From NCBI GenBank assembly GCA_973895155.1, contig OZ316891.1, positions 1,355,324 through 1,419,323 on the forward strand: a stretch of 64,000 bases of DNA. Direction: 5' to 3'. Made by a program: the position numbers and the translations under genes. Positions 1 through 48,830 of the stretch are shown piece by piece; positions within the stretch are counted from its first letter, which is position 1; each line of letters starts with the position of its first letter. Below the pieces are notes generated by a model. That model worked only from the letters and a program-made list of their open reading frames with translations. It made no database searches and was not told the origin of the DNA. This DNA is from Marsupella aquatica. Taxonomy: Eukaryota > Plantae > Marchantiophyta.

Positions 1-17
1 AAATATTAGTGCCATAC

Positions 18-3000
18 CTTTTCAGTATATGAACAGCCATTGGTACCCGTTTGGTTTCATAAGAATCCTGTGGAGCGGGAGGTGCAGAAACATGCCCAAC
101 AATATGACTTAGGCGCACAAATCCACCCTCCAAGAGCTCACCTTCACAGCGGTTCTCCACAAGTGACCATACTTCTGGCGATAAAATTACATTCCCTGCA
201 CACAAATGTTAAAATCCATAACATAGTATTATACCGTGAACGTCGTCGTAGGCCTGGGTAGCTAGCTCCCTTGATCAAGAAGAGAAGAGAGGAACATCTG
301 ACATGAAGGAACTTCATTTGTTCGAACGGGAACATGTCTAAGGATGCGGGACCTCCTACCTTTGAAGACAAAGGGTAAACAAAAGAGTTCCACAACTTCT
401 TAAAATCCAAATCCAAAAGTCAAATTAAAATGGCACCAGAGTTTGCATGCTCTTCACAGCAGCGTAGTTGTTCCATAGGTTGCCGAAAGTGCTTCGGCTC
501 ACTTCCAATGGGTACAGGCATGTCTGCCATGAAATATTCCCAGCGGGGCAGCCCAGAAGGCATTTGCAGCCCACCTCCAACACTAAGCATACATACCTGG
601 TACAAAACTTGAGGTAAGAGGAGATCCTTACTGCCAATGAAAACAGCAAAGGAAACGGCGCTTGCACTTTTGTGGAAAGTTAGTCAGGAATGCTATTTAT
701 GGGGTAGGAAATGTGAATTATTTTGGAAACAATTGGCCATTGTACCTTTCCAGCCCCAATGAGGACTTTCAAAGCCAGAGTAAGGGATGCATCAGGGACA
801 GCATCCGAAGAACTTGATCGTTGAAGAATAGCTCTGAGAACGGAATCTCTCTTGCTGCTCTTGAGACGGCTCTTTCTGTGAGTTGGAGAAGCTCCATGGT
901 GACTTAGAGAACCTCTGGCATCCTTGGAATGAATCTGTGCACCTGAATACTTTCTCTGCGGTCTGCCATTGGCTAGTGGGCTCGCATCCCTGGAGGAAAT
1001 CTGATCTGGCTCGTGATTAGTGCGAGAGGCTCTTAAGGTTCTCAGCACAGTTACTAGCTGTGACATGGTCAGAGGTTTTGATAGGAGGTCGTCCATACCA
1101 GCAGCAAGGCATTCTTTTTTTAGCTGGTCATCAACCTTAGTGCTAACCTGAATGACAATGAATGGATCACATGTATGATTGTGAACAGCTAACATGAATG
1201 CCAAGCAAATGAATGACATGTATCATAGGGAAAACACACACAAGCTTCAACCAGGTCCAGGCAGCTCATGGTCAATCCTCAAGAATATAGATAAAATCTC
1301 CGATATGGTTTCTTTTCTACGGTTTTCGAGATTCAAAAGTCAAGTAAGAAGGGATTATATAAAGAATTTATAAACACATACCCCAACGATTGGAGTTTTA
1401 GATCTGCCTTCACTTTGCCAGCACCAAGAAACCCACAGATTCCAAATAGAGTTAGTTTCAGCATTACTGCTTCAAAAACTACCCACTCTTAAGTACGTTT
1501 AATTATCGAAAGTTTCTTTGTTTTCCTCTTATATTTTAGAGGTCAAATTTTGGATAGCAATTGTCATGCAGAAAGTGAAGTATGCTTATGACTTGAAAGT
1601 GGATTCTACAGAAGGTAAATTTCTTTCCACTCGAGTAATCGCACTAAAACCTCGATCATGCGTAAGAATAGCATGTCATATAGAGATCCATTTCTGTTGA
1701 AGTTTCCAGGGTTTGTTTAGGGAAATGCAAAGCAGATTTCTCAAAGTGGAGCCTTACCTCGAGGAACGAAATCTCGCTCCTCAGCCAACTTATCGCTATG
1801 CATGCACAGAATGCAGCTTTCAGTGGACTTAAGCGTTAGAGAAAAAAATAATTGCTGGGCTTACCACTCCGACGAATAATGTGGGTCGCTCTAATCCCAT
1901 CCAGCACTGGCATGTACACATCCATAAAGATTGCATCAAAATTTTGCTTGGAATTAGCTTTGACTGCCTCTCGGCCATTAGCAGCTAGCACCACCTGCAT
2001 CCGAAATAGCACAGGACTTAACTTCGACCCTTCGATTCCAGAAAATGAATAAAAAAGATAAAACGCTTGTGTCGAAGTCCAATGAAGACATTTTGTAGCG
2101 TTTGCCTCTCAGATATTCAGTTATCTATGCTAACATGCTTCAAATCCCTCTCATGGATCTGTCTGAGAATTACTGAATCGAGCCATAGAATCTGAAAGGT
2201 GAATTTCTGATACTTTTATAGAAACTGAAATTACATATGATTGTACTTTTCCTGAGACTAGAACTAAGTACCTCGCAGTTCAGCTTCGATAGCATTTTGC
2301 TTAGAACGACACAGTTAAGCATAATATCATCCACAACGAGAATATGCACCACTTTTTCACTTCCTTTTTTGTCTCTTAACCCTCGCGAACTTAAGGACCG
2401 AGAAACCAGAGACTGCCTTGGTTTGGAATCTTTCAAATCCTTGTCGTCATGTACCGTGCTCTCAAATGCCGTGTTTCCGTAGCCCCCGAGCTATTATCCA
2501 TCCGAAGCAGCCAACAGGACTGTTTATTAGACAAACAGGGCTTGTAGCTCTGCTAGCGATATTAAATGAGGGTAAACCAGCCCAAGATGACTTCTGATCA
2601 GGGTTCACGTTACGTTTGAACTGTAATTTCCTCCAGTACTTCAAGATACTAAAGCCAAAAATAAATCGCAAAGATGTGGTCATTTAAACTATCACTGAGT
2701 CTCAAAGGCGGATAACGTTAAAGGCCAGCACATTTATCGCACTGACTTCTTTCTCCTGCTAAACAGAGCTTTACTACAAGAACGAAAAGTTCACCTCTGG
2801 GGTGTAAGCACCAAGACTTGAGATGAGATCGAATCCACATGCAACCGCTCGAAGAGCACAAGATGCCTGACTCTGTAGGGATCAGAAGCCGTGTGAATGG
2901 CAAATATAACTGGAGTGTTCGCAGCTCTTAACGCAGTTTCTGTCTAGTAGGTGAGGTAAGCATGTTTGAAGATGAATTGCTGAACTGACCAAGAACAAAC

Positions 3001-5836
3001 CACTCTACCTGTCCTTCGTTTGGAAGACAGATGTAAAACTGCTTACATCAAACCAAGGTTGACAATAAGTGGACTGAAATGAATGAAATCTCTCGTTGTT
3101 TTTGAAGTGAGAAGAAGGGAAACAATGCTTGAAGGTTGTTGTTTTTCACAGAGAGCTTCCACATGAGAGCGCATTTCTGATCAAGTAATCAGAGAAGGAA
3201 AGCAATTGCCAAATTGCGCGACACATAACTTGAGGACCTTTGGATAGTGGTTGGAAAGAGATACCTCATTGCTTGCCTTTTGAACTGGAAAGCAGACAAT
3301 TATTGAGTCACCGGCAAACTGTGCAGAAAGAAACAAGAGTCATAAATGAAGACGAAAGAATTGATTGGAATCCATTTACTAACGTTGAAGCGATAGAACC
3401 TCACCAAATGAGAGTTTTGTCAAGGCTTATTTTATAGAGAGATGCTTAAAGGATTCACACTATGACGGACAAAACTCGTTCACGCTGATGACTACGAGGA
3501 GAGCATTAACTTTGACCTTGGAGGCTACATGACTTTTTTATCATTCCAGCAGTCTTCTGTGACTCTCATTACTTGCAGAGAATCGTGCACAAAGCCATTG
3601 AAGATGCCTATGAATTCCTTCACAAGGAGCGTTGCGAAGGGTGGTCTCAATGACGACAAGTGGGTTAGATTCAGGATATCTGGTGATGGATGGAATGACT
3701 ACTGGAGCACTGTTTGTTAAACTTGGAACGTGAATTGTTACTTTACGTGCCACAGAAGCATTGATTCAACAAGACCCCGAAGAAGTAGAATTCTGACCTG
3801 CAATGGACAAATGATTCATTCTTCAAACACAAAGATTTGGTGAAACAGCTGGAAATGCTCCACAAAGTGAGGAGCTCAAAGGCCTCTTCAATGTCGGATT
3901 GCATTGGATCTCATTAGCAAAGAACGATGTCGACTGATGTGATGAAACAAAACTCATGTACCTACAGTTCAAGGTCGATAAAAGGTCAATTTTGGTGATC
4001 TCTCGTCAAGGCATGCTTTCGAATATCATCTTTCACTTGTGGATACAGCTGAAACAAAGTAACCAGCTCAAGCCTTTAAAAAACTAGGAGCTTCAACAAC
4101 ACTGGCTTGTTCAACTCACTTTGCTTGAGGTGTATACAAAAGCGAAAGATGATTTGGGGGAACGAAATCTCTGTCGTCACTATATTGTATGAAGCAAAAA
4201 CAAATTCTTCTTCGAGTGAAGCAAAGAAGAGGAGTACGTAAAATGAGGCTAGGCTACCTTGATAGTATCACCACCATGTTCAATAACCAGCTCTATTGCC
4301 TGCGGAACACGATATCAGTGAAGAAATTTGGTACTGAGAACTGGTGTTAACTGGTCCTATTTACAGTGACAAAAGCAAGGAACCCCTTGCATACGTTGAG
4401 CATGCCAAAAGACAAGTACAAAGGCCACAACCAGCTCGAAGTTCTAATTCTCAGTCTTGATCGGAGAAAGGTCTTGCTCTTTGCGCTGGAGATAATTACT
4501 CGCGATTGCAGATTTTGCTCCTTGGAAAAGTATGGACTGGCGACAAGTATGACAGACCCATCAAAACCACTGTCATATTTAAGTGCTTGTTCTTTAAGGC
4601 TGGACCAGATTGATACACAATTGTAAGCAAGTACTTGAAATACGTCCACCTCATCAAAATAGTTGTTCATGCAGCCTGTCAGCTCTTCCACAAGCTCATT
4701 ACCCCGCTTTGATGTAAGGGCTCTCTCTGTTAAAGTTGTAAACCCAGTGATGTCAGCAATCATTACTGCTCCCGTTACACACTGTATGCTTGGGCTCTCG
4801 CCCAACGGAATGTCTGCAGTGGCCCAACTATTTGGTCAATGAAATCAAAAGAGCCTTGAATTTCATTGCTCAAATGTTTGTCGCTCTCTACTTCTAGTTA
4901 TTCTCACTCATTCTACTGCAATACAAGTTCATGCACTCGCTTCCTAGAATTCTCAGTACATACTAAATTTGCAATAGGTGAGTTCCATCAGTGGTCTATG
5001 CTTTCCCGTTTCTCTGAGTTGTATTGTCAAATTAAAAATCAAAGCGGTGGTCCATGTCTACTATTCGACAAGTCTTAAAACTGATTTGTTTTACGTCGTT
5101 TCTAGTAATCGAGTTGGAAGAACATTCTAAGACTTGGAGAATAATCAAGGACGCACTGGGATGTCGATTCTGAAGGACAAATCTTCCAACCTTTCAATGA
5201 CCTTCGAGTTGTTCTATCGTCATGGCCACTATGTACTTTGTTTAGTAGAGCTAACTACCTATTGCATCAAGAGCTACCATACTCACTTGGGTCATAAAGA
5301 GCCGTGTCAGTCAGCATTTGAGGAATATAGGGGGACAATACTTGTAGTCTCTTCGTAGCTTCCTCTTCGGTATCTAAATCTACTGGGCCTGTAAATGCCC
5401 CATGCGTTGCAAAGTCCTGCCAATCCTCCCAACGAGGGGCCTCCACAAAAGTTCCCCAATCAGATTGCTCGGCCTCATCTGTTGCTTGATCGGTGGCTGA
5501 TGATGCCAACTCCTCATCGAGAACATCAGCTTCTGCAGCTAAAGCGTGTGCAAGTAAACCGCCTGGATCGGACATCCGACGTGATCTCATCTGCTCAAAT
5601 TCTGGAGTGACAGGAGTTTCTTCGAGCTCTGTTTGAAAACGCACTACGGATGGTGCACTGCGCCTAGAGGCTCGCTTTTCTGTTGGAGTTATTATTTGCA
5701 GCTCTCCGAGAGGTCTGTACGATTTTGGATCTTTGATAAGGAAAGTACCAGATGAGTTCTCCTTCACCACAGGAAGACCATGTTGAGAACTATCCCCGCT
5801 ACTTTCAGCCATGATTTCTTTATTATCCTTGTTCAT
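18..5836 (-). CDS. Soluble adenylyl/guanylyl cyclase, sAC/ADCY10-like class III, with an inserted response-regulator receiver domain. Multi-exon and partial: continues beyond position 1.
   Basis: GT-AG exons read by hand: 5287-5836, 4650-4813 (GAVMIADITGFTTLTE...EELTGCMNNYFDE), 4258-4299 (AIELVIEHGGDTIK), 3265-3318 (FAGDSIIVCF), 2795-2872 (CALRAVACGFDLISSLGAY), 2272-2490, 1865-1994, small exon(s) at about 1381-1800 (uncertain), 746-1147 (...LTLALKVLIGAGK), 437-596 (VCMLSVGG...RWEYF...QPMEQLRCCEEHANS), 18-195 (GNVILSPEVWSLV). These motifs follow the order of the sAC C1 domain. Confidence 0.85.
1040..2350 (-). other. CheY-like receiver (REC) domain encoded over several exons inside the cyclase gene
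   Basis: HILVVDDIMLNCVVLSKMLSKLNCE / VVLAANGREAV...FDAIFMDVYMPVLDGIRATHIIRR / KTPIVG / VSTK...ECLAAGMDDLLSKP. The acidic DD pocket, phospho-acceptor Asp, Ser/Thr and Lys-Pro are all present. Confidence 0.9.
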
Positions 5837-6349
5837 GGAAACTGAGATTGGATTTTCTTCTTCCTCTACTGAGAAAGCTGGCAGAAAAGCTGCAACCCTA
5901 ATTTTGAAAAAGAAGTCACATCCGGTGCCAAAACTGCTGAATGAAAATTACTTCGCTCTCCCAACGCAGTTATTTCTCATCTCCCAACATTATTTCTCAA
6001 CTCGTTCAAACTCTAATTACACCCAAACATGAAAAGATTGACTCTCTCACGGCCCCGCTAATGTGCTGTCATTCAAATGCGATCGCTTTCATTTTCTCCC
6101 CTCCATTGCTGTCCCATACGCCTGGTCATTTACCCCCATCAGAATTCCCGTTTTGACCAGGTCAAATCAGCCGAAGAAGTAGAAAGATCTTGGCTTGTGC
6201 AGTGGTGTTCTGTATTTTCTTCTGTTCGTATTTCCTCCTTTCACGTTAGCAACCAATTTTGCTTTGTTGTACTTTCTATCCAAAATGGGCGAATTGGGAT
6301 TCCTAGTCGTAGGACCCCTCCCGGCTTCTGCACAAAGGTTTGATTACTT

Positions 6350-6965
6350 ATCCAATTTTGCCAGGTGCTGTGGTCATCAGCAGAACGCAAATCTTCAATT
6401 ACTGGAAATTCTAACGCGAATTCAAACGAGATGAGATGATCTGTCCAAAGGCAAATGTCGGGACCCAAAAGGACAACGAGGGAGGATTGCAATTAGGATT
6501 GGAATTCGAGTTGTGCGATCTCTCCAGGCTTCTCCAGAGAACTTTAATTGTCTTTATAGATTCACCGGCGAGGTAGTCATAAGCACAATGCAAATCTTCA
6601 CTCACAAAATTCTTGACGCGAACCCAAACTGAACGAGATGATCATTCTGCCAAGGCCGGATCTCAGGACCAAAGACACAACAGGGAGGATGGCATCGGGA
6701 TTACAATTCCAATCGTAGGATCTCCAATCGTAGGTTGTATTAAATTTCGCCGGGTGCCGTGGTCATCAGCAGAGCTGAAATGTTCAATTACGGAATTCCC
6801 GATACGAATCCAGACTAGAAGAAACGATCATTCTGCCAACTCCTGCAGATCTCAGGATCAACAAGGCAACGACTGAAGATCAATTACGGAATTCCTGATG
6901 CGAATCCAAACGAGATGAAATGATCATTCTGCCAAAGTCGGATCTCAGGATCGACAACGCAACGA
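6350..6965. repeat. Degenerate tandem repeat of about 4 units (110-210 bp) upstream of the cyclase gene
   Basis: Recurring core caattacggaattcc...gcgaatccaaacgagatg...gatcattctgccaa...ggatctcagga near 6395, 6600, 6785 and 6880. Confidence 0.7.
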
Positions 6966-7379
6966 GAGAAAATAATAATAGTTACAGTTACAAGTCCCCG
7001 GGCTGCGAAAATTGGCAACAGAGGTATTACGGTAACCGTTGCTGTACGCCTCGATAGGATGCTAATACTGTAACGTACACTGATTTTCGCTCGATCAACG
7101 TAAACAGGCCTTCACAATACAAATCTACAACTACTGTATAATGCCCAATCCCGCCAAATTTAGTCAGTCTTCCCTTTACAAAAACAGTTCTGGGAGAGAA
7201 TGATCAACAGCTGGTGAATTCTTTTGCACTTTCTCTCTAACAGATCAATGCAGAAAGGGGCTAATTGGCCTACAAAAACAGTTTCTGGGCGGGAATGATC
7301 AACAGCCGTTGGATTCTTTTGTACATTTACCCTAACCGTTCGATGCAGAAAGGGGACCCTTGAATGCAAAAAAGGGGCA

Positions 7380-8450
7380 CGGCAGGGGTACTCCATCGTC
7401 ACGTCGGGCCTGAGGCAGGGGTATGCCTGACTCCCTCCCTCATAATTGACGTACGCCATGCTGCCCAGTGCCCAGGAGTGGAGCCGGTACACAACCTGAC
7501 CAGACAGTGCCCACGACTCCTGCCAGGCCCTCGCTTTCTCACTCACCCAATTGTGCAATTGTGCAACGCACAGACATGGTGCTCGTGTATCAATAGATTG
7601 TGAATGTTTGGAGTACAAGCGGAATTGAGTGCAAGGTCTGAAAAGTCTGTGAGAAAGATTTGGAACATCTACTTTGTATAAGAATATGCACCCCATGTGA
7701 TTCCATGATAAATTGAAGCAGCCAAAGGTCTGAAACTATTCATGACAACAAGGTCTATGTGCACTCTGTTGTCTGTTGAAAACCCAGCTGAAGATGATCC
7801 TCCTAAACATATTGGGGGTAGGGGATCTCAAAGACACTCCCCTAAATTGGGACAATAGGGGGTGCCAATGGTGGGCCTCAAAGACATCCAAAAGGTAGAC
7901 CTGTCTCACTAATTGCATATCAAAATGTGACAATATATGCTGCCTTAACCAGCTTGAAGATATTGTGCACTATATCTGGAGTTGCCCCATTTCTTCATCT
8001 GTTTGGCAATAGGTACAATTCATCCTGCGCTGCACCTCTCCCACCCGATGTACTGCCATCTGCCTTCAGCCGGCTCACATCTTTGTGGGTGCCCCCATCC
8101 CGGATGATTGGGACGCTCCCCTGAAACTCTGGCATACTCTCCGGGCCATTGTCTCTTGGATCCTGTGGAAGGATTGGAGCTCACATTTCATTGAGCTTAC
8201 TCGGTCCAGTGACCGGGCGGTCATCCAGAAATCGTGGCACTGTCAAGGGATCTACATACGTAGAGATTGGGCCAAACAACAATTTAAAATTGGGGCCAGT
8301 AAAACCTCTTTAGGTGATGCCATCTCTTACATGATGGTCAATTATGGTTCATGGGATGGACTCTATGAAATCCATGAAGATCTCTTGCAAGTGCCACCGG
8401 TGCCTCCTTGCACCCCATGATGTAGAGTGTTTGTCAGGAGTAGAAGCTTC
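7380..8450 (+). mobile_element. Degenerate non-LTR retrotransposon (LINE) fragment, ORF2 C-terminal region
   Basis: ORF 8085-8420 (LWHTLRAIVSWILWKDWSSHF...WHCQGIYIRRDW) resembles the Trp-rich 'W.IWK.RN..F' tail of plant L1-like ORF2. Upstream frames are broken. Confidence 0.55.
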
Positions 8451-9595
8451 ACTGCAAGCTAGATAGATATTGTTTTAGGCTATATCATGGACCCACTGTT
8501 TGGTGCCCTGCCGGCACCTCTCCACTGGCCGGTCTTTGGAGTTCTGTCGCTCCTTCTGTCTTTGGAGTTCAGTCGCTCCTTCTGCAGTAGTTGAATGTCT
8601 TGTTGAGTGTCTATATCCAGTCATAGTTTCTCATCTTACTCACGGTGTGGCGCCACGGATCTGTTGAACTGTGTGCTAACATACGTTTGGGGTGTCAGAG
8701 CGGTTGTTTCTAGATCATGGAACTTAAATTGGTGGTAAAGCTCCAGCAAGGACTGTCCTGCATGTGATCAGCATGTCAGAAGCAACAATTGATTTTGGGG
8801 AATACCTTTCATCCCTGGTGCTCAATTCTTGATCAGAGAATCCAAATTGTCAGCTCCACTTTCCCCATCAGAACAGGGGAGGAATTTCAATTCAATCCGG
8901 GAAAGAAAAAACAATGTCACCGTACTGACCAGGGCAACAGACATTCTTGCTCACCCATGTCCTAAGACAAGGAAGACAAGAGTCCAGAGCTGCTCCTGCT
9001 CCGAAGTACTCACGATTTATTCAAGGAAACAGAAATCTAGAGCATTAAACTGCCCCGGATCTGGACGTTGATGTCCCCACCTGAAACACATTTCTATGTA
9101 GGCCAAAATATTCAGGTCTTAATAAAAACAAAATGTTCCACAGCATGGAACTTTGCTTACAAAGCCCTATTGCAGGACCTTCTCTCAAAAGTCACGCTAC
9201 CGAATCCTCAGGGTCATACTGCAGCACCTAAAGAAGTGCCCATCCCAAATGGGTAACTCCTTTCCTATTGTGCAGGTGTCATACCTTCTGGAGATTAGGC
9301 TTCGCGCTACACTAAATCCCGAATTGTCTCCACCAACTACTTGCTCTCCAAAACGCAAGTACTCAAAAATCTCTAACGAACTTATCGTACCCACAATCTG
9401 ACATGAAAAGTTTGGGTAAAAGTGTGCGTAGCAATAAGAACATGGCGTGGTCAATGTTCGCGAGGGTTTTTCATGGGTTTAAACTATTATGCTGGCCTAT
9501 GTGGGGCAGGTTTATTGATGAAGATGGTAGCGCACATTATACCCAGACTTTATGAATTTTCAAAACCAAACAATGTGATTTAAACTATTTCAATT

Positions 9596-26079: not shown

Positions 26080-29000
26080 ATGGACGACGACCAAACTGGT
26101 GCAGAAAATGATGGAGCAGGCGACGCTCTCTCCTTTTCACTTCTGTTGGACAAGAGTCTTCCTTCCCTGGTCTGGAAATCCTACCGGCCTGCCTGCATTT
26201 TCCTGCGAATGTGTTCATAGAGAAGTTTGAGCCGTGTCAAGAAATCTGAATCCATGTTATATCTTTGATGCCTTGGCAAGCCTGCCTTTCTGCTCTTGAT
26301 CCTTCGAGAATGTGATGCTAAAACATTGGGTTTAAGGTTCAGGGTTTAAGGTTCAGGGTTTAAGGTTCAGGGTTTAACGTTTTAGGCGTTGTTTTGTCAA
26401 TGTCTCTTGGGATGGAACTGAATGGTTATTTTTTCACACATGCATTCTTCGATTTGGCTATGTTGCTTGAGATAGATGCATTCGAGGTCAGGGTTTATAG
26501 ATTATGCTGATATTACAATTCTGGGTGGAGGAGTAGGATGTGTGCTCTTATACCTGTCGTGCTTTCAGGTTGAAATAGCAGCATGGAACCCTGGAAAGGA
26601 TTTACTAGCTATGGTCACAAACGATCATCAGCTTGTCGTTCACCGTTTAAATTGGCAGAGGCTCTGGGCCGTGACGCCAGGTAACATGTCTGCCGTGGTC
26701 GAGTAGGCTGTTACCGAACTTTCAAATAAATGTTATGAAAATATTAATTGTTTTGCTCGCATTAAATGTATTGGGGCCTATCTGTCTGTGACAGACCTGA
26801 AAGTGACGGCAATCTGTTGGCGTCCCGATGGAAAAGCCCTGGCTGTGGGACACATCAATGGCAGCATCGCAATTCATGACGTGGAGGTTATATTTCACAG
26901 CTTTCATACAATTTGTCAAACTACCAATTTCTTTTCTTTCGCAAAGTCGTAGTACTATGGGCATCCAATTTGGACAAAAGAAGGTCTCCATGGAGGGCAG
27001 TGTAGGTGCGCAGTGACAGCGTTGCCCTTCTTCCGGCTTTCGATGGATAGTGGAGCTGATTATTGCAATTCTTAAGGACAGTAAATCTCTGAGACATTTT
27101 TGCAACTATGTGTGCCGTTTCCCCCTTAGAATGGAGATGTCTTGCGCAAAAATCGGACTCACGAGGTGGCTGTGAAGTGCCTGTACTGGGCCGAAGAAAG
27201 TCAAACCATAATGGTGGGTCTGGTTCTGGATCCCTAGTTTTCACCTTTTTCCAATTCCTGGTTTCCAGTTTTTTGAAGCAAATCAGAAAGTGAACAGAAC
27301 TGAAGATTTTTATTTGAGTAAAACTGTTAATTACCATCAAGATTGCGAGCAATGGAATTCAATCGTGGCAGCTTTCGAACCTTAAATGCCGACTTGAGAT
27401 TTGTCTTGTGTCAAGGGAAGTGAAGACAACGTGTTTATTTATGAGGACCGCACTCTTCGGTTTTTCCCTCCTCCACCCAAGGCACCTCCCATGCCAGGCA
27501 CTGCACCTTCATTTGACATGTCCAATGTGCTTGGGTCCAATATGGAAGATCTAGAAGGCAACAGTCTGAAGGGGACAACAAGAGATATTAAGCATCGACT
27601 TGATATTCTCTGTAGTGGAGATAGGGATGGCCTGATCTGCTTGAGTGCATTTGGGGTGTTTCCTATAGGCAAGCTGGTAAGTTCGAGACCAATTCAACCT
27701 TTCATAGGAAATGAAAGTTTTGTTAAGTTGTTAAAGTATGTCCGTTTTGTTTTGTTTTTCCTTTGCAATGCTTGGCCTTTTCACTTTCCCGAATGATCCT
27801 AGTCTTGTTATGATCTCAATGTCTAGACGTGCGTACGTTCTAAAGTTGGTGTGGCCGTTATTCATTAGTGGTTGGAGGTCAGGTCTAAGAGTTGGATCAC
27901 CTGAGGTTGAATGTCACTGGATGAATGATAGAAATTTGAAATGTAGTGGGAATTCTTACCGGTTCTATGCATTCGCTAATAGATATTTTGGACGTCCATA
28001 ACCGATAAAGTAGCGACTTGGGAGTTGTGGGATTTTGATATGTCTTGTTGATCTGTTCCTTTCATGATTAGACCCTATGGACAAAGGTCGGACTATTGAG
28101 AAGTGAGTATGATGAATAATTTGTTGCTTTACAATTTGCCTTGAAGGGAATGCGTGATCTCACAATCATGGAGCTTGGTACAGATGATAATTCCAAGCGC
28201 TCCTCATGTCAGCTTCTTGATGCATGTGCCCTTCAGGTTTGCCTTCCTCTTTCTCTTACCAGCAGGTCCTTTTTGTTTTTTCCTCCATTCGGTATGGACT
28301 TCAAAATTCATTCACATTTAAACCTATGGGTAGTATTTTGTTCATTATACATTTTCACTTCCATTGGGGTATAATAACAATAGTTTTCTCTGTATAAATC
28401 TTGGTTTGTAATGCTAACAAATGTGAGTTTAAAGCGAATGCATGCCTGTGGTTAAATAAAAATATACGGACCATATGTAAGACACCTCCGCTCAGAAAAG
28501 GTCCTGGGAACTTGTTCTTACTTGGTTTGAGGGCTGGAAAAGCAGGTCTCTCTTTCGAATGATCTTCGACACATGACGGTTGTCTGCAGTGGAAGAAGTA
28601 CCTCTGAAGGTGGGCATGCGTTGGAAGGGACTAGAGATTCAGGGATCTACTGCATCTCTGTTAATACAGCTCTTCTTGGCAATAGGTCGGTTAACTGTGT
28701 TATTGCCTTGACTTTTTGGTTATTGTCATGGATTACCTGCTCAAGAGTTCTTTTCTGAACTGGTACTGGTTTGTGGGACAGGCCATGCTATCCTCTGCAA
28801 TTCATATTTCAGAATAAATTTCTTAAATTGTTGAATGATAATGGATAATCTCTGGTATGAATGTCAACTATGGACGGATGGACTAAGATAACTTCTAATC
28901 TTGTTATGGAAAACCAGTTTGTGGTGTAATCAGTCTGCTTTTAGTGATTTCAAGCCCTCTCTCTCTCTTCTATTTCAGGCGCAAAGAGCTTCGTCAAGTT

Positions 29001-32000
29001 GCTCTGCAAGCATCAAGTGTAGAAGAGCTTGTGGATGTACTGCAGACGTCATTAATCGTGATGGAGAAGCATTGGTCCGAGGCAATTGACTCTTTCAAAG
29101 ATAAGATCAATGGATTTTCAAGGCTAATTTCTGAGCATGGTACTCTTGGAAGCCCTCTATACCTGCTCTTATTGTTTTGAAAATACTGACGCGTTATCTC
29201 TGGAATCCTCCGCCAGACTTCTGGAATGAATGTCATCTCTCACCTCCTTAATGTTTGCCTTAGATGATCTTAGACTGATGCGTTACTGTATGTATTCAGG
29301 CTCAAATGCTACTCCTAAAGATGAATTTCTGGGTGTACTAACTTGGGGATATGCAAGCCCAGCGCTTCAGCAGTTTCTTGCGGTTTCCCTGGGAGAAGCG
29401 GTGAGATTCTCGAGTAGTAGATTAGACCATTGAAAAGAGCCTTCTTACATGTACTCGACGGATGACGGTTGTTTCACCCTATGCTTGATAAGGATCTGAG
29501 GATTGCCAGTGATCGCAACTTGGGGAGGTCTATACTGTAACATTCATGCGAAGGACTGTTTGATCTCAAAGTGCGGTGTATTCCTTACCAGGGGCTGAAG
29601 CGACTTTCTAAAAGCATAGATACTGCTGCCATGGAGCTCCACAACATTATTTCCGAGCACATGCAGGCAAGTCCTAAGAGTACCTTAGAGTAATTTCTCG
29701 TTTGTGTGTGGTTGGTCCTTTGGCCAGATGACGTCCTTGGCCACTTTAAGTTGATTTGTACGTTAATGCCGGTGCCTGCCTCCTTGATCTACATCAGCCA
29801 GCAGCTGAAGTTGTAACATTCCGGTTAGGTGAACTGAGAGGTCTTTCTCGATGGAAAGCTCGACTTGGTTGTGTGGGTCTTGAAGAAGCTCTCTTGGACG
29901 GGGCTCTAGAGCATGCAGGGATGCTCCTCGTGCAGTTGGAGCGGCTTCTTCACATAATCTCAGATACCACTGGTGGAGTAAGTCCCTTGTGCGCAATCTA
30001 AGGTTGTTTTCGGTGACGACTTCATTGTCTGTTTCTCGTTTTTTGGTGTCATTTTAGAAATGGAGCCAAGTTTGCTTATAGGTTTTGAGGATCCCAGCCT
30101 TGGAACTTGGTGACCATCACGAATTTCACCTCCAAGGGCGTTACTGGGGTAGAGAATTAGTCCTGACAATGCTGTATCATCTTGATTGTCTTGAACTAAC
30201 TGAGATTTGTATGCAGTTTCGGCCCTTCTTTGTATGGCTTGTGAAGGTACTGCGGCAAGTGAATCGAGAGTCACTGCCCCAGTCAGAACAGCTACCTAAT
30301 GTTGATAGGTAGGAATATCTCACTGTTTCGATGACTATCAAAAGATAATGTGAATGAGAGATCACATGAGATCTTAACGATGCAGTTCCAGAAAATGCAT
30401 GGGTAAGCAGTGGGTGTGGTTCGCACCCCTGCGTATGTACGTATAACCCCATGGACTTGATGATATGTTGCAATATGTTCTGATTACTTTGAAGACGGCA
30501 CATACCGATATGAAGTACGGGGCTGAGGGATCTGCTTTTGTTTATAACCGAGTTTTTTAATGTTCAACAGTATGGCTGTTGCGACCTTTTTACAAAAGGA
30601 TTTTGAAACGGATCAGATAGGTGGGCATCTCCGCAATTCAATGGACGTATCCTTGGAGGTTTCACGGCAAGTCCTCTATCGTTCCGCGTAAAATAGGATA
30701 GCTCATTCAAACAATTTAACATGGCATCAGAATCCGTCAGGTTTTCCAAAGAAATTGGTGTTTACCAGAGTGATTAATTCATTGCAAGAAGTGGGGAAGA
30801 GTTAGAGTTTAAATGTTTCTGTACAGTTCTGGAGACATGGGTGTCTTATTTTTCAAGTTTTGTGCATAAAAATCATTCAGCTAAATGGCCTCGGCAATCT
30901 TCTGATGCTTTAAAATGTTTTCGTTCCTTTAGTTTGTGTGGAAGGTAGCCTTAGTATCTAGGTTAAGCTAATCCTCTGGACTCAGTTACAATCTTCTCTT
31001 GTATTGCAACTCTACCATTTGCATTGATTAACGTAGGTTGTTAACACCCAATTTTTAGTTTGAGTTGGGGGTATCTTATCTTTCTTACACGCCGTCCAAC
31101 AAAAATCACAATATGAAATTCCAGTGAGCTAGTGGAGATGATGGAGGAAGTTGCCATAATGGGAGGTTACAAGGACACAAAATTTCTGCAGCGTACTCTC
31201 GCTCAAGAAGTTAATTTGCTTGCTCAAAGGTGTGGTCTACATAACCTTGTGGGTGAAGATATGCGTCACTATTTGATGGCTTTCACTTCAAACTGATTGA
31301 AATCAGAGGTGGTCTGGTGCCCAGTCTTGTGTTGGACGTTACCTAGGAGGTCATACTTAATACCTCGTTGGATCAGTTCCCTTGCTTGTCCATAAATTAT
31401 CACTAGTTATCATTGCTATGTATCGATACCACATCACGAGTGTTTTCTGCCTCTTGCAGTTGTCAGGAAGCCTTCACAAAGCCATTAAAGGTTGTGTCAC
31501 CACAGCTTGGTTCACCCCACATGATTTCGTTAGGGGAGATGGGTTTCTCCCCAAATCGACCAATGTCTTTGACATATTTTGAGGTTGGGATGGAAATACC
31601 AGGGGTCCTTGTCCAATCGTTATATAAATTCATGGAATGCTTGCCCTCGAGTATCTCTTGAATTGTCTATGACTAGAAAATAAACAAGGAAAAAAACCAT
31701 TTATTTTCTGAGCTGCTTATGGTCAGTCCAAGCCGTACAGAAAGTCCAAGGGCGTAGTATGATTTTTCTTGCTTCACACATCAATTTGAGTTGTTAGTCA
31801 TAACGTCCATATTCTGGCTTCGTCCGTTATGAATTTCTTGCCTGTTGCATGATCTTATTTTGGAGCATGTTTAAGCTGTGGTAGTGATGTACATCTGTGC
31901 CTCAAATTCAGGCGAAGCAAGACAACGATACCGAACTGGAGTCGGAAGACCGGTTACCTTTGGTAGAGTACGTCTGCTTTCACAATTCTGGGTTAGAGGA

Positions 32001-33219
32001 CCAGAGTGTGGTGGGCATACTGCGAGGGTTTGGATCAGGCAATGGAGCGGGTGATGGGAATAAAGGCTCCCTTGCAGAGGCTCTCAGCCTGCATCTTGAT
32101 GAAAGTCTGCGTTGCCTTGACTTGGCTCTATACAAAGTTAGTCCGTCTACTTCGTCTATGAATCTTGGAGTTTTCTTCTTGGAGTTATTTCGTCCAATAT
32201 TAGACTTACTGTAACAATAACTGCTTGTCGGCCAACTTAAGTGATGCCTGAAATGCTGTTGTCCTTGCGTTCTGCCACAATTAGATGTGACGGTGGCTAG
32301 AAAACGATCTTATTCGTTGATGTTTTTTGTTTCCGTCATGGATGCAGAAAAGACAGCTTCTTTTACTGGTTACAGACAGAAGTCACGACTCAGAAGAAGG
32401 GTCGGGACAAGCCTGGCTTATGCTCTTGCCGCTGGATGATCTTCTGTTTCACGAGTTGACTTTAGCAACCTTCACTACGAGGAACCCACTGCACCTTCGC
32501 TCATCCAGTGTAAGTACTCTCTTGATGGAATATTGAGCTTCCCATGTGAGGCATGGTTGGGTCACTATCTCCCAAATTCTTAAAGTTCAGAATATTGGCT
32601 GCGGACCTCTTCCTTAAGTTCTGTGAGACGTGGGTGGCATCGGGTCTATTCTATCTTCCGGGTTTTGGAAGTAATTTGCATTAGTGTTAGTGTCTAGAAA
32701 TTATGGCTGGCATACCCTTAAATTTTTGATTAGGAATGTTAAGACGATGATCCATTGTGACGATCAATTTTTGTGCAGGAAGCCGGAGCAGATATAGGCC
32801 TAACGGACGGTAAAGTGCGGGAACTTCCCTTGGCTGATGTGGTAGTTCCACTGGCTGTAAGTGGTATGTGCTGTTCTTTCTTTTCATGCCCTTTAGTTCT
32901 TATCTCCCAGGATGTACGTAATATTTTGTCTGGGCTTTGTGAAAGTTGCGGTAACCGGTCATGTAACTACCACACATTTGCTATTTCTATAAATTGGTCA
33001 CAAGGTAGATGAAAGCGTACATTTTCAAACGTCAATGGGCTTCTAAACTAATTCTGAAACGGGTTTTCTTGTGAGGCACTGAAGTCATTTCTGACATTCT
33101 GAAATCTCCGCCTGATAACAGCATCTAGGGGCCTGGCCTGTGTGTTCACGAGCCAAAGGCGTATGCTGCTATTTGACCTTGAAGAAGATGAAGACGTAAA
33201 AGGTGAAGATCTGGACTAA
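26080..33219 (+). CDS. APC4: Anaphase-promoting complex subunit 4, multi-exon
   Basis: MDDDQTG...[12 protein letters not shown]|[17 protein letters not shown]...[10 protein letters not shown]; [13 protein letters not shown]; [23 protein letters not shown]; [20 protein letters not shown]; [30 protein letters not shown]...* (TAA 33217-33219). Confidence 0.93.
26328..26377 (+). repeat. Telomere-like 14-bp tandem repeat (GGGTTTAAGGTTCA) x3.5 in APC4 intron 1
   Basis: Alternating TTTAAGG and TTCAGGG, each a one-mismatch variant of the plant telomere unit TTTAGGG. Confidence 0.75.
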
Positions 33220-35144: not shown

Positions 35145-35924
35145 CTAATCCTCCTCTTCAATCACCTTCGTACCCAAGTTCGAGAAACCCTCAGGAGGAG
35201 CCTCAGCGGCAGTGACGTAGGAGTAAAGCTCCTCCTTCGCGTCCTCATCGTCGTTCCGCTTCCTGGCGATGCGGATGCGGATCCTTGTGGGAACGTTCCT
35301 AACGCCTCTGCTCCAGATGTGCTTATTCAATTTCACATCAAGTCTCACGTCGCTTGTTCCCATTGCTTTTTGGGCAAACTTGCGGATCTCCTTCACGGCC
35401 TTTGGAGCCATCTTCTTGAAAGTACTGAGCACAGAAATCAAACCCAGCCATTACTCGCAATCAACGACTGCGTTTCCTCAGACAACCCAGTCAAACCAAA
35501 CCACACACGGGACAACTCACCGAACAAAAACCCAGAGAGACAAACTACCAGACGAACAAATCTTTTTCACAGCCTTCGGAGCCGTCTCCTTGAAACGACT
35601 GAGCATGAACCTAAGCGAACAAAACCCAATCACCCGATGAACGACTGCGTTCATCAAACATCCCAATCAAACCAAACCATTCACCGGACAGCGAAATCAA
35701 CGAATAAACGGAGATAACAGACGGATGGCGTCCTTCGTGAGTGTTCCCGGTCCCAATAATGTTCGACTCTCTACGACTCTGTAAAGTGTTCATTTCAAGG
35801 CAAAACCAGACAACCAGGTTCACGAAGCGCGACTTTCTTACCATCCATGGAGTCTCTTGTGGAGGTTCACGGTGTACTCTCGCGTGACGACCTCATCCTT
35901 GCGGCTCTTGCCCTTCTCCACCAT
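35145..35924 (-). CDS. RPL31: 60S ribosomal protein L31 (eL31), 2 coding exons: 35842-35924 and 35145-35424
   Basis: [28 protein letters not shown]|[68 protein letters not shown]...*. Confidence 0.97.
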
Positions 35925-39076: not shown

Positions 39077-40732
39077 GGAACTCCGAATACTTACAAAATT
39101 GATAATGAGGTTCAATAAGATCAAAAATTTTAAATGAGGATGGACAAAATTGACATTGACTCTAAATAAAGATAAAACTGAAATAAGGATTGACAAAAAA
39201 CAAGGATGAGGCAAAAATTAACCAAAATAACATATAAATTTTATGATGCAAGATTTTTTTCATGTCTATGTAGGTTCAAGGAATGGGTCATGGGGCTAGT
39301 AGCTTTTCACATTGTAAAAGGAGCTCCCTGCACATGTGTGAATTGAACTACATACTCTTCAAGTTGAAAGCGCATCGGATAAGCCCCCTGTTCTGCTTGT
39401 TTGAGCATGACAAGATACACATATGGCACCCTCAATTGATTCTGAAGAGCATCCAAGCTACCATCTCACTAGGTCAATGTCGCAAAACAGGAGTAGTGTT
39501 ATGGAATATAATTTAATGTTTTATTTGTGTCAACTGATGTTCTGGTGAGGTACATCTGAACACCTTGCCAATATTCGTGTCTGTCCGGGCTTATCTTTCA
39601 TGAACTTTCCGTTAAAAACAACAACTTTCCCGTGTGCTTGTCATGTGATCCACGCTTAACACGGCTCGATGCTCTGCATCGGGAGGATCGAGACCGTAGA
39701 TTATAACGGCAGGAAAGTGATCGCCGGCGTTTCAATGTCGGAGATAAATCCCGGTGCCACATCGCCCCTCTGCCGTCTCCGCCCTCTCTGTCCTCATTGG
39801 CTCGGTGGGGCCAGGCGGGGCCAGGTGGGAGACGAGGGCCGGGCAAGGTCCGACACGACAGAGCCCTAAAGTCTTTCGTTCTCGTCCTCTGCATTCGTCA
39901 GGTTTTGTCTCCACGAGAAGATTGGAGAAGAGGAGCATTTGCAGGTTTTCTCCTCTGCGTCACGCGAAGAAATTTTCACTCGATTTTCGTTCTGAAAGAT
40001 GATGATGTGTGCAGCTCCTGCTCCTGCTGCTGGTGCGGGATGGGATTGATCGAGCAGCACGGAAAGAGCGCGCGTCCGGAAAGCTAAATGTCTCTCGGAA
40101 TCCGCCGAAGCTCGCGGTGGTGAAAGTTTGACGCAGTGGGTTGCGAAGAGGAAGGTGCGGGCTAAGGAGAAGAGTCGTCGACGATGGATTTAATTGTTGC
40201 TGAATTTCGGCCGCTGCTTGGAGCTATCGGGGAGCTACGTTCTTGGGACGATACTGGGTACTGCTACTCAGTCAGGAGGAGGTGATCGGGAGCCGAGGAG
40301 CGGGGAGGCAATTCAATTGACTCTATTTGTTTGGCCAGCGAGTGAGGTCTTGGGAGGAGGTTTTGTGATGATCGGGTGAAGAAGGAGAACGAGAAGAGGA
40401 AGCAGGGGAGGATGGACGGACGGCCGGCTTGTTTGGAGTGTAGTTGTGGAATTTTACTGCTTCGTCGCGCTACTGTAGGTTGACGATTGAGGAGGAAGCA
40501 GTGAACTAGTACTATTTGATTCGGCAGGTACCGATGATTGGACCGAGAATTGAGTGGAGGAGGTGGAGGACGCGGAGGAGAGAAGAGAGTTCAGACGACG
40601 AATTGCTGTGAGACATGGTGAAGGTAGACTTGTAGTATTACTTAGGGTGGTATTGGTTTTGAGGACTCGGTATCAAGGAACGGAAACAGTAACAGAGGAA
40701 CACACATATAGAGTGTTCCAGGGAGGGAGGGA

Positions 40733-41695
40733 ATGATTGCAGCGACCAGCAAGAGCCGCGGTTGGAGTAGTACTAGTAGTAGCAGTAGAGCGGGGAGGAG
40801 GATGCAGCAGCAAGAGGAGTTGGAGGATGATAATCTATCATGGCCCGAGGAGGTGTTGAAAGCCGTCTTCCCTCTGTTGGCAGGGCAGGATTTGGGAGCA
40901 TGCGTGTGCGTTTGTAAGCAGTGGAGGGATGTCGCCAGCGATGATTACCTCTGGAAGCAGCTTTGTGCCAGAAGATGGCCGTCTGTCCTCTGCACCAGCA
41001 GCACCAGCACCAGCAGCAGTAATTGGAGTGGTAGCAGTGGGGGTTCAACAGGGCCACAGCAGCAGCAGCAGCAGAAGAAGGGGCCGATGATGGCAGCAGG
41101 GGGAGCCTCACGGCCCTACTTCAGCTTGTTTTCCAGTTTCTGCAAACCGGCACGGAAGCAGAGGATGCCGTTACCGAAGTTGAGGTTTGAGGATTTGGAT
41201 TTTTACGTGGACATCTGGTGTGACTCGCAGCCCTTGTATTCCACCGTGGTGCATGGGCCGTTGGTGCTGTCCAGAATTCTGAACCCTCCCAAAGGAATAA
41301 GCCAGACGTTGCAGGATCATCTCATGAACGAGAGCTACAAGCTCACGGTGCCGGTGTCGCCGAGCTTTTCCGTGAAATTGGCGGAACCGCCCAAGGTGTC
41401 GATGCTGGTGCGGCGCCGGGACGACCAGCGGGTGGCATGCATCATGGATATGTCAAGTTTCGACTATTTGGACGGTCATGGGAATCTTGCTCACGCTTTC
41501 GAGTATCTTCAAATATCCCCGCTCTATCCCTTTGTGTCACCTATCAGAGCTTGGGTGGCTCTGCTTCTGCTGGACTCCGAGGAGAAGGAGGGACAGGAGG
41601 TTTTTGGAATTGAGCTGGATTTCGTCGATGCTGCCAACAGTGAGAGGGAGGTGCTCTGCTTGCTGGAAATCTTGGATTGGAAGTCCATCTCGTAA
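40733..41695 (+). CDS. Intronless F-box protein (At5g39250-like family)
   Basis: 320-aa ORF with F-box motif WPEEVLKAVFPLLAGQDLGACVCVCKQWRDVASDDYLWKQLCARRWPS, followed by PKLRFEDLDFYVDIW and C-terminal FGIELDFVDAANSEREVLCLLEILDWK. Confidence 0.9.
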   Translation: MIAATSKSRGWSSTSSSSRAGRRMQQQEELEDDNLSWPEEVLKAVFPLLAGQDLGACVCVCKQWRDVASDDYLWKQLCARRWPSVLCTSSTSTSSSNWSGSSGGSTGPQQQQQQKKGPMMAAGGASRPYFSLFSSFCKPARKQRMPLPKLRFEDLDFYVDIWCDSQPLYSTVVHGPLVLSRILNPPKGISQTLQDHLMNESYKLTVPVSPSFSVKLAEPPKVSMLVRRRDDQRVACIMDMSSFDYLDGHGNLAHAFEYLQISPLYPFVSPIRAWVALLLLDSEEKEGQEVFGIELDFVDAANSEREVLCLLEILDWKSIS

Positions 41696-44267: not shown

Positions 44268-44348
44268 TGTCAACAGTGGGATTCGAACCCACGCCCTTTC
44301 GGACCAGTACCTGAAACTGGCGCCTTAGACCAACTCGGCCATATTGAC
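44268..44348 (-). tRNA. trnL-CAG: tRNA-Leu(CAG)
   Basis: GTCAATATGGCCGAGTTGGTCTAAGGCGCCAGTTTCAGGTACTGGTCCGAAAGGGCGTGGGTTCGAATCCCACTGTTGACA. It has an acceptor stem, A-box, anticodon loop TT-CAG-GT, long variable arm and GTTCGAATCC B-box. Confidence 0.96.
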
Positions 44349-47570: not shown

Positions 47571-48830
47571 TTAGCGGCAAGGAGGCTCTAAAGTGTCTGA
47601 AGGTTCTTCATCATCAGATGTGCCCGAATCTGGATCACTCAATTTTGTTTCAAAAACGATCTCATCTCTTCCTAAAAACACCCATCGAATGCCCCTGCCA
47701 TTGTAGTAGTACAGATCTACAAATGCCTCAAACTTGTCACAACAATGCCATACACAAGCCCGCACCAAAATGTCGTTGAGGTCAAGCTCTAATCTAGGCC
47801 GCCACCACATTAGACAACACTTGTGGTCCTTCTGAGAGGGGAACAGGCCATTCCAGGGGCCCCGAATGATCAAGTCCCCTCTTTGAGGTATGCATTGTAG
47901 ATCACATGTGTTGGGTTTGATAGCTGTCCTATATCTAACAGGCACTATTTTGTAGTTAGATTGGATCTTGTTACATGGATCTTCCAAGTAACCATATGTA
48001 TCCAATGCTCCTTTCAAGTTCCACTGGTGGTCTGTATTCAGGAGAAATAGCTTAATTCGCTTGCGTGTTCGCAATGTGCAATCTCTAAACTTGAGTATCC
48101 GCAACACCATTAGGCCTCCATCCATCTCAAGTCCATAGGAATTATTTACAAATCCAACATATCCTTTGGGATCCAAGTTTCGCAGAAAAATGGTATTTAT
48201 ACACGGTTTGACATAAATGTCTCCTCGACGTGGCCTGAATCTTGGAAGTATATCTCCAACATTCTTACCCTGGGGTCGTCGAGGATGCTTGCAAGTGTAA
48301 ATTTTTCTCCCAGGGAAAAGTAAGCTCCCTCCTACCTCAGCGAGCTTGCCTGCACGTCTATGGTTCGATGCCTTTCCTGCTTGTAGCACCCAGTCCCTAT
48401 TGAAGGTGCAAAGTCCTTGCTCATGATCTCTTAAGCATGGGTGTGATGCCCAAGTACTTCCTATTTTATCCAAGCTTCTACTTTCCTTTCCACTTGGGTT
48501 TACATGAGGAGGCCAACAAGGTCTCCAGATTTCTCGAGGAGTGCACCCTGAAGGTTGTGGACCTTCATTGGGCAAGCAAGGACGATAGTAAGAGTCATTC
48601 AACTTTGTCCCCACTACGTCTTGAGTGACATGCCTGGCTAACGGGTCCTTGCAATTTCCAAATACAAAGTTGGTGTCCAAGGTGGGTGGAGGTGGTTCAT
48701 ATGGCAAGGGAGCCACATTCAACTCTGCATGCTTCCAATTGTTATTGATGGTAACATCAACTATGTACTTATTAGCATCAATTTTCTTATCTAGATCCAT
48801 CCCTTGGCAGGCTGAAACTTTGGATTGCAA
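47571..48830 (-). CDS. Uncharacterised 419-codon open reading frame, possibly transposon- or virus-derived; true start uncertain
   Basis: 1.26-kb uninterrupted ORF in otherwise stop-rich DNA with no recognisable domain. It starts at TTG or a downstream ATG and may have upstream spliced exons near 48970-49010. Confidence 0.45.
   Translation of the reverse strand: MQSKVSACQGMDLDKKIDANKYIVDVTINNNWKHAELNVAPLPYEPPPPTLDTNFVFGNCKDPLARHVTQDVVGTKLNDSYYRPCLPNEGPQPSGCTPREIWRPCWPPHVNPSGKESRSLDKIGSTWASHPCLRDHEQGLCTFNRDWVLQAGKASNHRRAGKLAEVGGSLLFPGRKIYTCKHPRRPQGKNVGDILPRFRPRRGDIYVKPCINTIFLRNLDPKGYVGFVNNSYGLEMDGGLMVLRILKFRDCTLRTRKRIKLFLLNTDHQWNLKGALDTYGYLEDPCNKIQSNYKIVPVRYRTAIKPNTCDLQCIPQRGDLIIRGPWNGLFPSQKDHKCCLMWWRPRLELDLNDILVRACVWHCCDKFEAFVDLYYYNGRGIRWVFLGRDEIVFETKLSDPDSGTSDDEEPSDTLEPPCR

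Follow-up and report, generated by a model that had tools for sequence, protein, structure and literature searches.

In cyanobacterial CyaC, Dictyostelium AcrA/ACB and similar proteins, a receiver domain (REC) lies beside a single cyclase domain. In animal membrane cyclases, it is the α3-β4 loop region of the first catalytic domain, C1, on which G proteins act. How land plants make cyclic AMP (cAMP) is a long-standing question, and MpCAPE is the only characterised class III cyclase in Marchantia. Here we describe a gene at the left end of a 64,000-nucleotide (nt) stretch of the liverwort Marsupella aquatica (contig OZ316891.1, positions 1,355,324 to 1,419,323; the window), in which a REC with its linkers lies between helix α3 and strand β4 of a C1 domain of the ADCY10 or soluble adenylyl cyclase (sAC) type. 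We read it as one bryophyte C1-C2-STAND-TPR gene with REC in the α3-β4 loop, likely cAMP-making, probably only in cells whose splicing removes a conserved stop-bearing part of intron 3, and with a receiver that would tune its activity, and we give this reading as a whole a probability of about 0.6.

Part of the gene is already known, namely the cyclase family and the 3′ half of the Marchantia counterpart, Mapoly0178s0022, whose adenylyl cyclase (AC) annotation reportedly originates with the antheridium transcriptome study of Higo et al. 2016. A later mention says that this half is without several catalytic residues and needs testing (PMC5159850). The literature searched did not reveal the embedded receiver, the rejoined active site or the conserved splicing block; for Mapoly0178s0022 itself, the available texts mention neither REC, nor a link to Mapoly0178s0021, nor the splicing block.

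Gene model and the receiver inside C1

The gene runs on the minus strand from 5836 to 18 as 11 exons, all with GT-AG borders, giving 667 codons without a stop. The model is open at the left edge, and coding continues beyond position 18. For transcripts we used the contigs of run X1, which come from a relative and were taken as RNA because of their GT-AG joints; at least 11 records aligned to the window, and two contigs extend past position 17, where the gene continues beyond the window. Residues were read against human sAC numbering by alignment. The exons are as follows.

5287 to 5836, minus strand: exon 1, N-terminal extension (amino acids 1-183) with RRMS and WxxWxxF, and the first helix of the cyclase core
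4650 to 4813, minus strand: exon 2, C1 β1-α2 with ADITG; Asp204 (4754-4752) corresponds to human sAC Asp47
4258 to 4299, minus strand: exon 3, GGDTIK; Lys252 corresponds to human Lys95; a 42-nt exon also found in Sphagnum
3265 to 3318, minus strand: exon 4, FAGDSIIVCFP; Asp256 (3309-3307) corresponds to human Asp99, the second metal ligand
2795 to 2872, minus strand: exon 5, C1 helix α3 (ALRAVACGFDL...YTP), the final C1 element ahead of the insertion
2272 to 2490, minus strand: exon 6, N-linker of about 49 amino acids and REC β1-α1 with VVDD (Asp350, Asp351)
1865 to 1994, minus strand: exon 7, middle of REC with the phospho-acceptor Asp394 (FMDVYMP, 1922-1920); PF00072, E = 6.8e-8
1382 to 1407, minus strand: exon 8, 26-nt micro-exon (G-RSKTPIVG)
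746 to 1147, minus strand: exon 9, REC β4-α5 (Ser423, Lys445), Ser-rich C-linker of about 84 amino acids, then C1 β4 (LALKVLIGAG)
437 to 596, minus strand: exon 10, C1 β4-β5 and α4 (VGG, RWEYF, MEQLR); Arg600 aligns with human Arg176
18 to 195, minus strand: exon 11, end of C1 (VILSPEVW) and linker toward C2

Exon 1 shows 78% identity to Calypogeia fissa CAM6112266, and exon 2 matches the C. fissa protein at every residue (100%), in keeping with a Calypogeia-like leafy liverwort. Spliced X1 contigs support joints 1-2, 2-3, 9-10 and 10-11; joints 3-4, 4-5, 5-6 and 6-7 are not among the X1 joints listed. Leaving out the micro-exon (1407-1382) brings a stop at codon 414, and the frame therefore requires it. 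It finds support in a micro-exon-like loose end at 1148 in an X1 contig and in a 35-nt micro-exon at the corresponding place in Sphagnum (metagenome locus L001, 15411-15445). The original prediction had exons 5, 6, 7 and 9 joining in one transcript; splicing of REC exons to C1 exons, in X1 and in the Marchantia isoform P0047, bears this out, except that 1865-1994 joined to 746-1147 is out of frame without the micro-exon.

RRMS and WxxWxxF are present in all five named N-terminal halves examined, although the extension is otherwise divergent. We take RRMS to be a site of the protein kinase A (PKA) type, and the N-terminal motifs presumably resemble PKA sites or a phosphatase-docking motif; these and related motifs give a hint of possible feedback control. 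In Marchantia and Riccia, the STAND insert again carries RR[VI]SF and RRSS.

The window protein aligns in two places with a profile made from 12 bacterial sAC-like proteins, amino acids 162-294 at profile positions 4-129 (E = 3e-30) and amino acids 540-640 at positions 135-218 (E = 1e-8), with about 245 residues separating the pieces. Exon 5 corresponds to bacterial α3 (profile positions up to 129). With the insert removed in silico, the two C1 pieces merge into one domain with E = 8.5e-42. In Sphagnum, the profile is likewise split, 28-129 and 136-311. The distance from α3 to β4 is 216-249 amino acids in the window, Sphagnum and Marchantia, and the linker-REC-linker insert is about 250 amino acids long; the same loop has 8-17 residues in all 41 bacterial C1 domains that aligned (the 30 best loci of a search that matched 103 of 301 genomes, and 11 of 18 proteins). 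Precomputed PF00072 is found in none of the 18 bacterial protein matches. One exon, exon 9, encodes both the end of REC and C1 β4. The linkers flanking REC are 17-22% Ser and 9-13% Arg, in line with the Ser/Arg-rich linkers of the original prediction. Neither the literature searched nor these 41 bacterial relatives showed a two-domain sAC with a receiver within its catalytic fold.

The structure prediction agrees with this placement. The Marchantia core was modelled with AlphaFold (mean pLDDT 65.9); the model is confident on either side of the insert, which itself scores below 50, and its top 24 fold matches are all human sAC (target TM score 0.73-0.77 over about 738 columns); the best PDB sequence matches are also human sAC. 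The folded model is without exon 4 and has 27 additional amino acids that P0047 does not contain. Of the automatic alignments, A2 and A3 put bacterial α3 into REC; A4 placed it correctly and was used for folding. The REC part has low confidence for want of alignment depth, so the model is uninformative on docking of REC. The sAC motifs of C1, the REC motifs and the resumed C1 motifs of the original prediction are all there, on the minus strand and in the order claimed, and its assignment to the sAC family and placing of REC within C1 both stand.

The REC is of hybrid-kinase type. Its profile matches single window exons at E = 6.8e-8 and 0.003, and in the orthologs it covers positions 1-110 of 111 (Marchantia, E = 4e-23; Riccia, E = 5e-26), in keeping with the claim of an intact domain. 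The window REC has all five canonical residues, Asp350, Asp351, Asp394, Ser423 and Lys445. Its codons seem to be under selection: comparison of the Sphagnum loci L001 and L003 shows no amino-acid changes in exons 7 and 8, which encode the REC core, and eight in exon 9, by inspection mostly in the linker. Among 16 exonic variants of organism C (from the 40 of 307 variants listed), 7 of 8 are synonymous outside the C-linker versus 2 of 8 inside it. By these small counts, REC-core codons are constrained and the C-linker drifts.

Gating of the cyclase through phosphorylation of REC is nevertheless a tentative proposal. At the β4 Thr/Ser position, three of the four bryophyte sequences (Marchantia, Riccia and Sphagnum) have Cys, and with VADG in place of VVDD Sphagnum also loses the second Asp of the acidic pocket. 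Nearly as likely as phospho-gating is an active sAC-type cyclase with an atypical (pseudo-)receiver, docking or autoinhibitory and not phospho-switched. The Cys and Gly replacements in a REC sequence that is still conserved fit this alternative, as do the long and variable linkers. Against it, the phospho-Asp and the β5 Lys are retained in 4 of 4 sequences (window, Marchantia, Riccia, Sphagnum), the window keeps the full set of five, and the nearest relatives among solved structures, RcsC and SLN1, are working hybrid-kinase receivers.

Catalytic residues, base preference and range

In human sAC, Asp47 and Asp99 bind the metals, Asn412 and Arg416 are the transition-state residues, Lys334 and Thr405 read the adenine, and Lys95 and Arg176 belong to the bicarbonate site. 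Asp204 and Asp256 of the window are the equivalents of Asp47 and Asp99, and both are also in Sphagnum; the Marchantia FAGD codons lie outside both Marchantia protein models. In C2, equivalents of Thr405, Asn412 and Arg416 are found in Marchantia, Riccia and Chara (Asn and Arg within INLSARL), and Thr/Asn in Sphagnum. The window also has equivalents of the bicarbonate-site residues Lys95 and Arg176, the latter aligned in a weak segment. The position of Lys334 is different. All three plant C2 domains (Marchantia, Sphagnum and Chara) have Gln there, against Lys or Arg at 29 of 30 bacterial loci, so that activity or the preference for ATP may be changed. The replacement would weaken the label "adenylyl-specific", not descent from the sAC family. 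Judged from these residues, catalysis is likely and base preference uncertain, and the product is probably an active nucleotide cyclase.

An alternative to an adenylyl cyclase is a guanylyl or dual-specificity cyclase. The Gln at the Lys334 position points that way, and a mycobacterial Gln-Asn cyclase, named Rv2488c in the available part of the source, has guanylyl cyclase side activity (bioRxiv 2024.03.06.583649). Retention of the Thr405 equivalent, closest folds that are human sAC and absence of the Glu/Cys pair argue against such a specificity, which we consider unlikely. This pair is typical of guanylyl cyclases. The side activity of the mycobacterial Gln-Asn cyclase is said to belong to Rv0386 rather than Rv2488c.

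Orthologs are found in Marchantia polymorpha, M. paleacea, Riccia and Sphagnum, with a C2-STAND homolog in Chara. The tandem C1-C2 was pieced together from orthologs, with C1 in the window and C2 in Marchantia, Sphagnum and Chara. Marchantia OAE24229.1 (1286 amino acids) has REC at 298-408, Guanylate_cyc at 727-814 and AAA_16; AAA_16 and TPR are found in P0047 (Marchantia) and P0025, both regions lying beyond the window, and a Walker A-like GxxGxGK is present in Marchantia, Riccia and Chara. The C2 domain and STAND/TPR tail that the original prediction placed downstream thus exist in Marchantia and Sphagnum. It had also set the gene apart from CAPE; neither P0008 nor P0047 has a PDE (phosphodiesterase) family, and the available part of PMC5159850 keeps the two apart.

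Three metagenome loci (L001, L003 and L005; 6 exist) are 94-99% identical to the Sphagnum protein and have the same exon order through STAND. Exons 3, 4 and 5 are equal in length in the liverwort and Sphagnum L001 (42, 54 and 78 nt), and all shared intron phases match. Sphagnum exon 5 (L001 12877-12954; 78 nt, as in the window) ends at a GC donor; exons 4-5 are left out of annotated Sphagnum proteins. The REC insertion is common to Marchantia and Sphagnum, and in Riccia REC directly precedes the second half of C1. The Chara model P0026 (CBR_g8385) is without C1a and carries a retrotransposon reverse transcriptase-RNaseH-integrase stretch in mid-STAND. P0077 (Logan) and P0078 (JGI) are fragments of more distant members of this clade, P0078 being intronless across the exon 10-11 boundary. 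Among nine matches of a representative search, P0072 and P0074 were repetitive false matches and were dropped; a homolog search with exon 10 gave no match. The tree has 44 rows and a midpoint root (the Sphagnum row is 37% filled, animals, fungi and chlorophytes are not represented, and the window, Riccia, P0008, P0027 and six single-domain bacterial proteins are omitted). In it, the plant rows form one long-branched group (100/100) without a resolved bacterial sister, and a donor cannot be named.

A probable single gene annotated as two

Each of the four liverwort annotations seen gives the N-terminal half as a gene of its own, of 244-262 amino acids, that ends directly after GGDxIK. In Marchantia the two halves are Mp3g24340 = Mapoly0178s0021 and Mp3g24330 = Mapoly0178s0022 (MARPO_0178s0022), and in Riccia 004568 and 004567. 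The break falls between the two metal-binding Asp, and the rejoined halves regain both. Intron 3 holds two features.

3798 to 3961, minus strand: alternative (poison-type) exon of 164 nt in intron 3, included in an X1 contig with both of its joints (3958/4255 and 3318/3798)
4025 to 4153, no strand assigned: imperfect inverted repeat with 50-nt arms, within the 296-nt intron that separates the alternative exon from exon 3

The alternative exon starts with GTACAT, encodes VHEFCFITSVD, has a stop at codon 16 and shifts the frame. A VHxxxFIxSVD-type peptide also terminates the annotated N-terminal halves of C. fissa, M. polymorpha, M. paleacea and Riccia. Among 7119 GT-starting 33-mers of the window, the intron-3 peptide is the sole match this good to the Marchantia tail; it is therefore conserved across two large liverwort classes. 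Indeed, the segment has what marks a poison exon, being an alternative exon with a premature stop, conserved in liverworts and included in transcripts. At the nucleotide level, its resemblance between liverwort and Sphagnum falls short of significance (6 of 120 donor pairs are equally alike), and we make no claim for mosses. In the recursive splicing model, joining of an exon recreates a splice donor. Since the segment starts with GTACAT, joining it to exon 3 recreates a donor, and this hexamer is a used donor in L001; the exon is thus a possible recursive-splicing element. The 296-nt intron folds at z = -2.63, with 3 of 200 shuffles folding equally well. A hairpin between exon 3 and the post-junction element is unsupported (z = -1.34 and -0.45), and window 1-9000 has no Rfam match.

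Transcripts connect the halves. One X1 contig, whose joints were assigned to it via shared depth, reaches from exon 1 to exon 7; it includes the stop-bearing exon and skips exons 5-6, judged from its length of 663 nt. Exon 7 is spliced to exon 4 in an X1 contig. Marchantia isoform P0047 has exons 4-5-6-7-8-9-10 joined in frame, with its annotated start at a Met within exon 4. Exon 4 has no Met in the window species and a 54-nt counterpart in Sphagnum; its conservation in the window therefore needs in-frame joining to exon 3.

Could the locus instead make two products, one a short N-terminal protein with VHxxxFIxSVD at its end, the other a REC-C1b-C2-STAND-TPR scaffold without catalytic activity? 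In all four liverwort annotations the first product stops at this peptide, which is conserved beyond chance, the Marchantia 3′ open reading frame has its Met in exon 4, and the productive join is not seen in X1. Yet the contig from exon 1 to exon 7 makes the locus one transcription unit; liverwort and moss alike keep FAGD and both metal ligands, though the 3′ product would start past them; exon 4 of the window offers no Met for such a start; and the terminal peptide is not clearly conserved in Sphagnum. We regard two products as improbable, and one gene giving a full-length protein in at least some cells as very probable. That REC is a separate nested gene or the locus a decaying pseudogene is most improbable: in the window model exons 6-8 or 6-9 can be skipped with the frame intact and unproductive transcripts dominate those seen, but C1 β4 shares exon 9 with the end of REC, transcripts join REC exons to C1 exons, the liverwort and Sphagnum loci have intact frames and splice sites, and REC and C1 codons are constrained.

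These observations suggest how a single gene could work. Direct joining of exons 3 and 4 would give GGDTIK-FAGD, and both metal-binding Asp of C1 would then lie opposite the Thr, Asn and Arg of C2 within one active site, like that of human sAC, with the C1 fold closed around the looped-out insert. Most transcripts would be unproductive, carrying the stop exon, retaining intron 3 or skipping exons 4-5 or 5-6, and this may be why annotation pipelines split the gene. Productive splicing is probably confined to one cell type, most likely late spermatids. On flexible linkers of 40-85 amino acids the receiver would dock back onto the enzyme, where catalysis might be altered by His-Asp phosphorylation of Asp394, at somewhat less than even odds, or, a shade less likely, by phosphorylation-independent binding. 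Other possible inputs are bicarbonate, given the Lys95 and Arg176 equivalents, and PKA, through the RRMS site.

A candidate for the missing sperm cyclase

Mpcape mutants have wild-type cAMP in antheridiophores and sperm, from which the available part of PMC11032487 inferred another enzyme without naming its locus. The rejoined gene is a concrete, testable candidate for this missing antheridial and sperm cyclase of Marchantia, masked by its split annotation. It may supply the bulk, CAPE-independent cAMP of Marchantia antheridia and sperm, and we hold this, like the proposal that it is the main source of sperm cAMP, only tentatively. In a stronger version, the gene is the main bryophyte source of sperm cAMP, a poison or recursive-splicing element found throughout liverworts keeps it blocked until spermiogenesis is well advanced, and the plant His-Asp phosphorelay switches it through REC. 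This version seems unlikely to be right in all its parts; if true, two-component signalling would be coupled directly to cAMP/PKA-driven sperm swimming in a land plant.

Besides the replaced residues of REC and C2, several observations count against the single-gene, sperm-directed reading. A fully productive transcript is absent from every record examined, and the exon 3-4 junction is in no named protein. Named Sphagnum models pass over exons 4-5 and end once exon 6 is read, two unnamed Sphagnum models read into intron 3, and the Riccia model is without part of C2. Weak, heuristic searches gave no named match from Physcomitrium, hornworts, lycophytes or ferns, and in the available part of PMC8115329 Mapoly0178s0022 groups with streptophyte and green algal sequences; with these lineages missing and this algal grouping, the range of the family may not track flagellated sperm. 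Neither Marchantia half is among the rows listed from the early-antheridium sets (1,916 and 9,911 rows) in the available part of PMC11371191, where MpCAPE is listed; these lists do not bear on late spermatids.

The literature requires some care with names. The available text of PMC8115329 uses the identifier Mp7g08500.1, but its Table S1 gives Mapoly0178s0022.1, and Mp7g08500 maps to CAPE in another data set; the identifier in the text looks like a slip. Mp3g24340 and Mp3g24330 have no literature match by locus name, and Mapoly0178s0022 has one. Locus terms were unmatched in the parts available of the supplements to PMC11032487, PMC6290024 and PMC7363739, and the accessible portions of PMC9516144, PMC12249641, PMC11171877 and PMC3085406 hold nothing bearing on the gene.

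Neighbours and comparison with known systems

Upstream of the cyclase start, window 6349-6963 holds three to four degenerate copies of a repeat unit at spacings of about 96, 186 and 202 nt, and window 7188-7355 holds two copies of a second repeat of 73 nt. A long multi-exon gene (minus strand, about 10-21 kb) and a 421-amino-acid frame at 47571-48836 gave no Pfam match on the pieces tried. The other neighbours are as follows.

27398 to 32214, plus strand: APC4-like gene
35145 to 35450, minus strand: RPL31 frame
40712 to 41695, plus strand: F-box gene
44268 to 44348, minus strand: tRNA-Leu(CAG)
51284 to 54357, plus strand, and 60240 to 62475, minus strand: two near-identical CCCH zinc-finger genes (zf-CCCH matches) with RS/G-rich tails, convergent and about 6 kb apart, which we take to be paralogs of the U2AF small subunit (U2AF35)

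Among known systems, human ADCY10 (PDB 4CLF and relatives) is like the bryophyte protein in its tandem C1-C2 core (TM 0.73-0.77) and its P-loop/TPR tail, and no transmembrane family is among the Pfam matches. Equivalents of Asp47, Lys95, Asp99, Thr405, Asn412 and Arg416 are kept in the bryophyte proteins, as is one of Arg176 by a weak alignment. Unlike the human enzyme, they have the linker-REC-linker insert of about 250 amino acids in C1 α3-β4, Gln for Lys334, an N-terminal extension of 160-230 amino acids and a conserved stop-bearing intron-3 segment. This segment, the Lys-to-Gln change at the base-specificity site and the published 3′ half are additions to the original prediction.

The closest non-plant matches are bacterial class III cyclase-STAND(AAA_16)-TPR proteins, for example from Anaerolineae/Chloroflexota and Actinomycetota. 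They have the same domain order and share the motifs VGG...RWE and EYT..G..VNL.ARL, whereas their α3-β4 loop is short (41 of 41) and none has precomputed PF00072 (0 of 18). Mapoly0178s0022/Mp3g24330, also CUFF.20439 and "Adenylate cyclase type 10" in UniRef, is listed beside Chara GBG71085.1; the available part of PMC5159850 treats it only as an AC-like sequence without catalytic residues. MpCAPE, an AC-PDE fusion, is likewise a class III cyclase of plants with motile sperm (available parts of PMC5159850 and PMC8115329), but it has one AC domain, a class I PDE at the N terminus and membrane spans, belongs to a separate clade, and its loss leaves total cAMP unchanged (available part of PMC11032487).

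Finally, cyanobacterial CyaC, Dictyostelium AcrA/ACB and archaeal REC-cyclase clusters (the REC-cyclase matches in a feature search of Atlas were Nitrososphaerota clusters) have a receiver and a class III cyclase in one chain. Unlike in these fusions, the bryophyte REC interrupts the fold of a two-domain sAC, and the Marchantia protein has no kinase domain. A receiver inside the two-domain sAC fold would be a new route from phosphorelay input to cyclic-nucleotide output.

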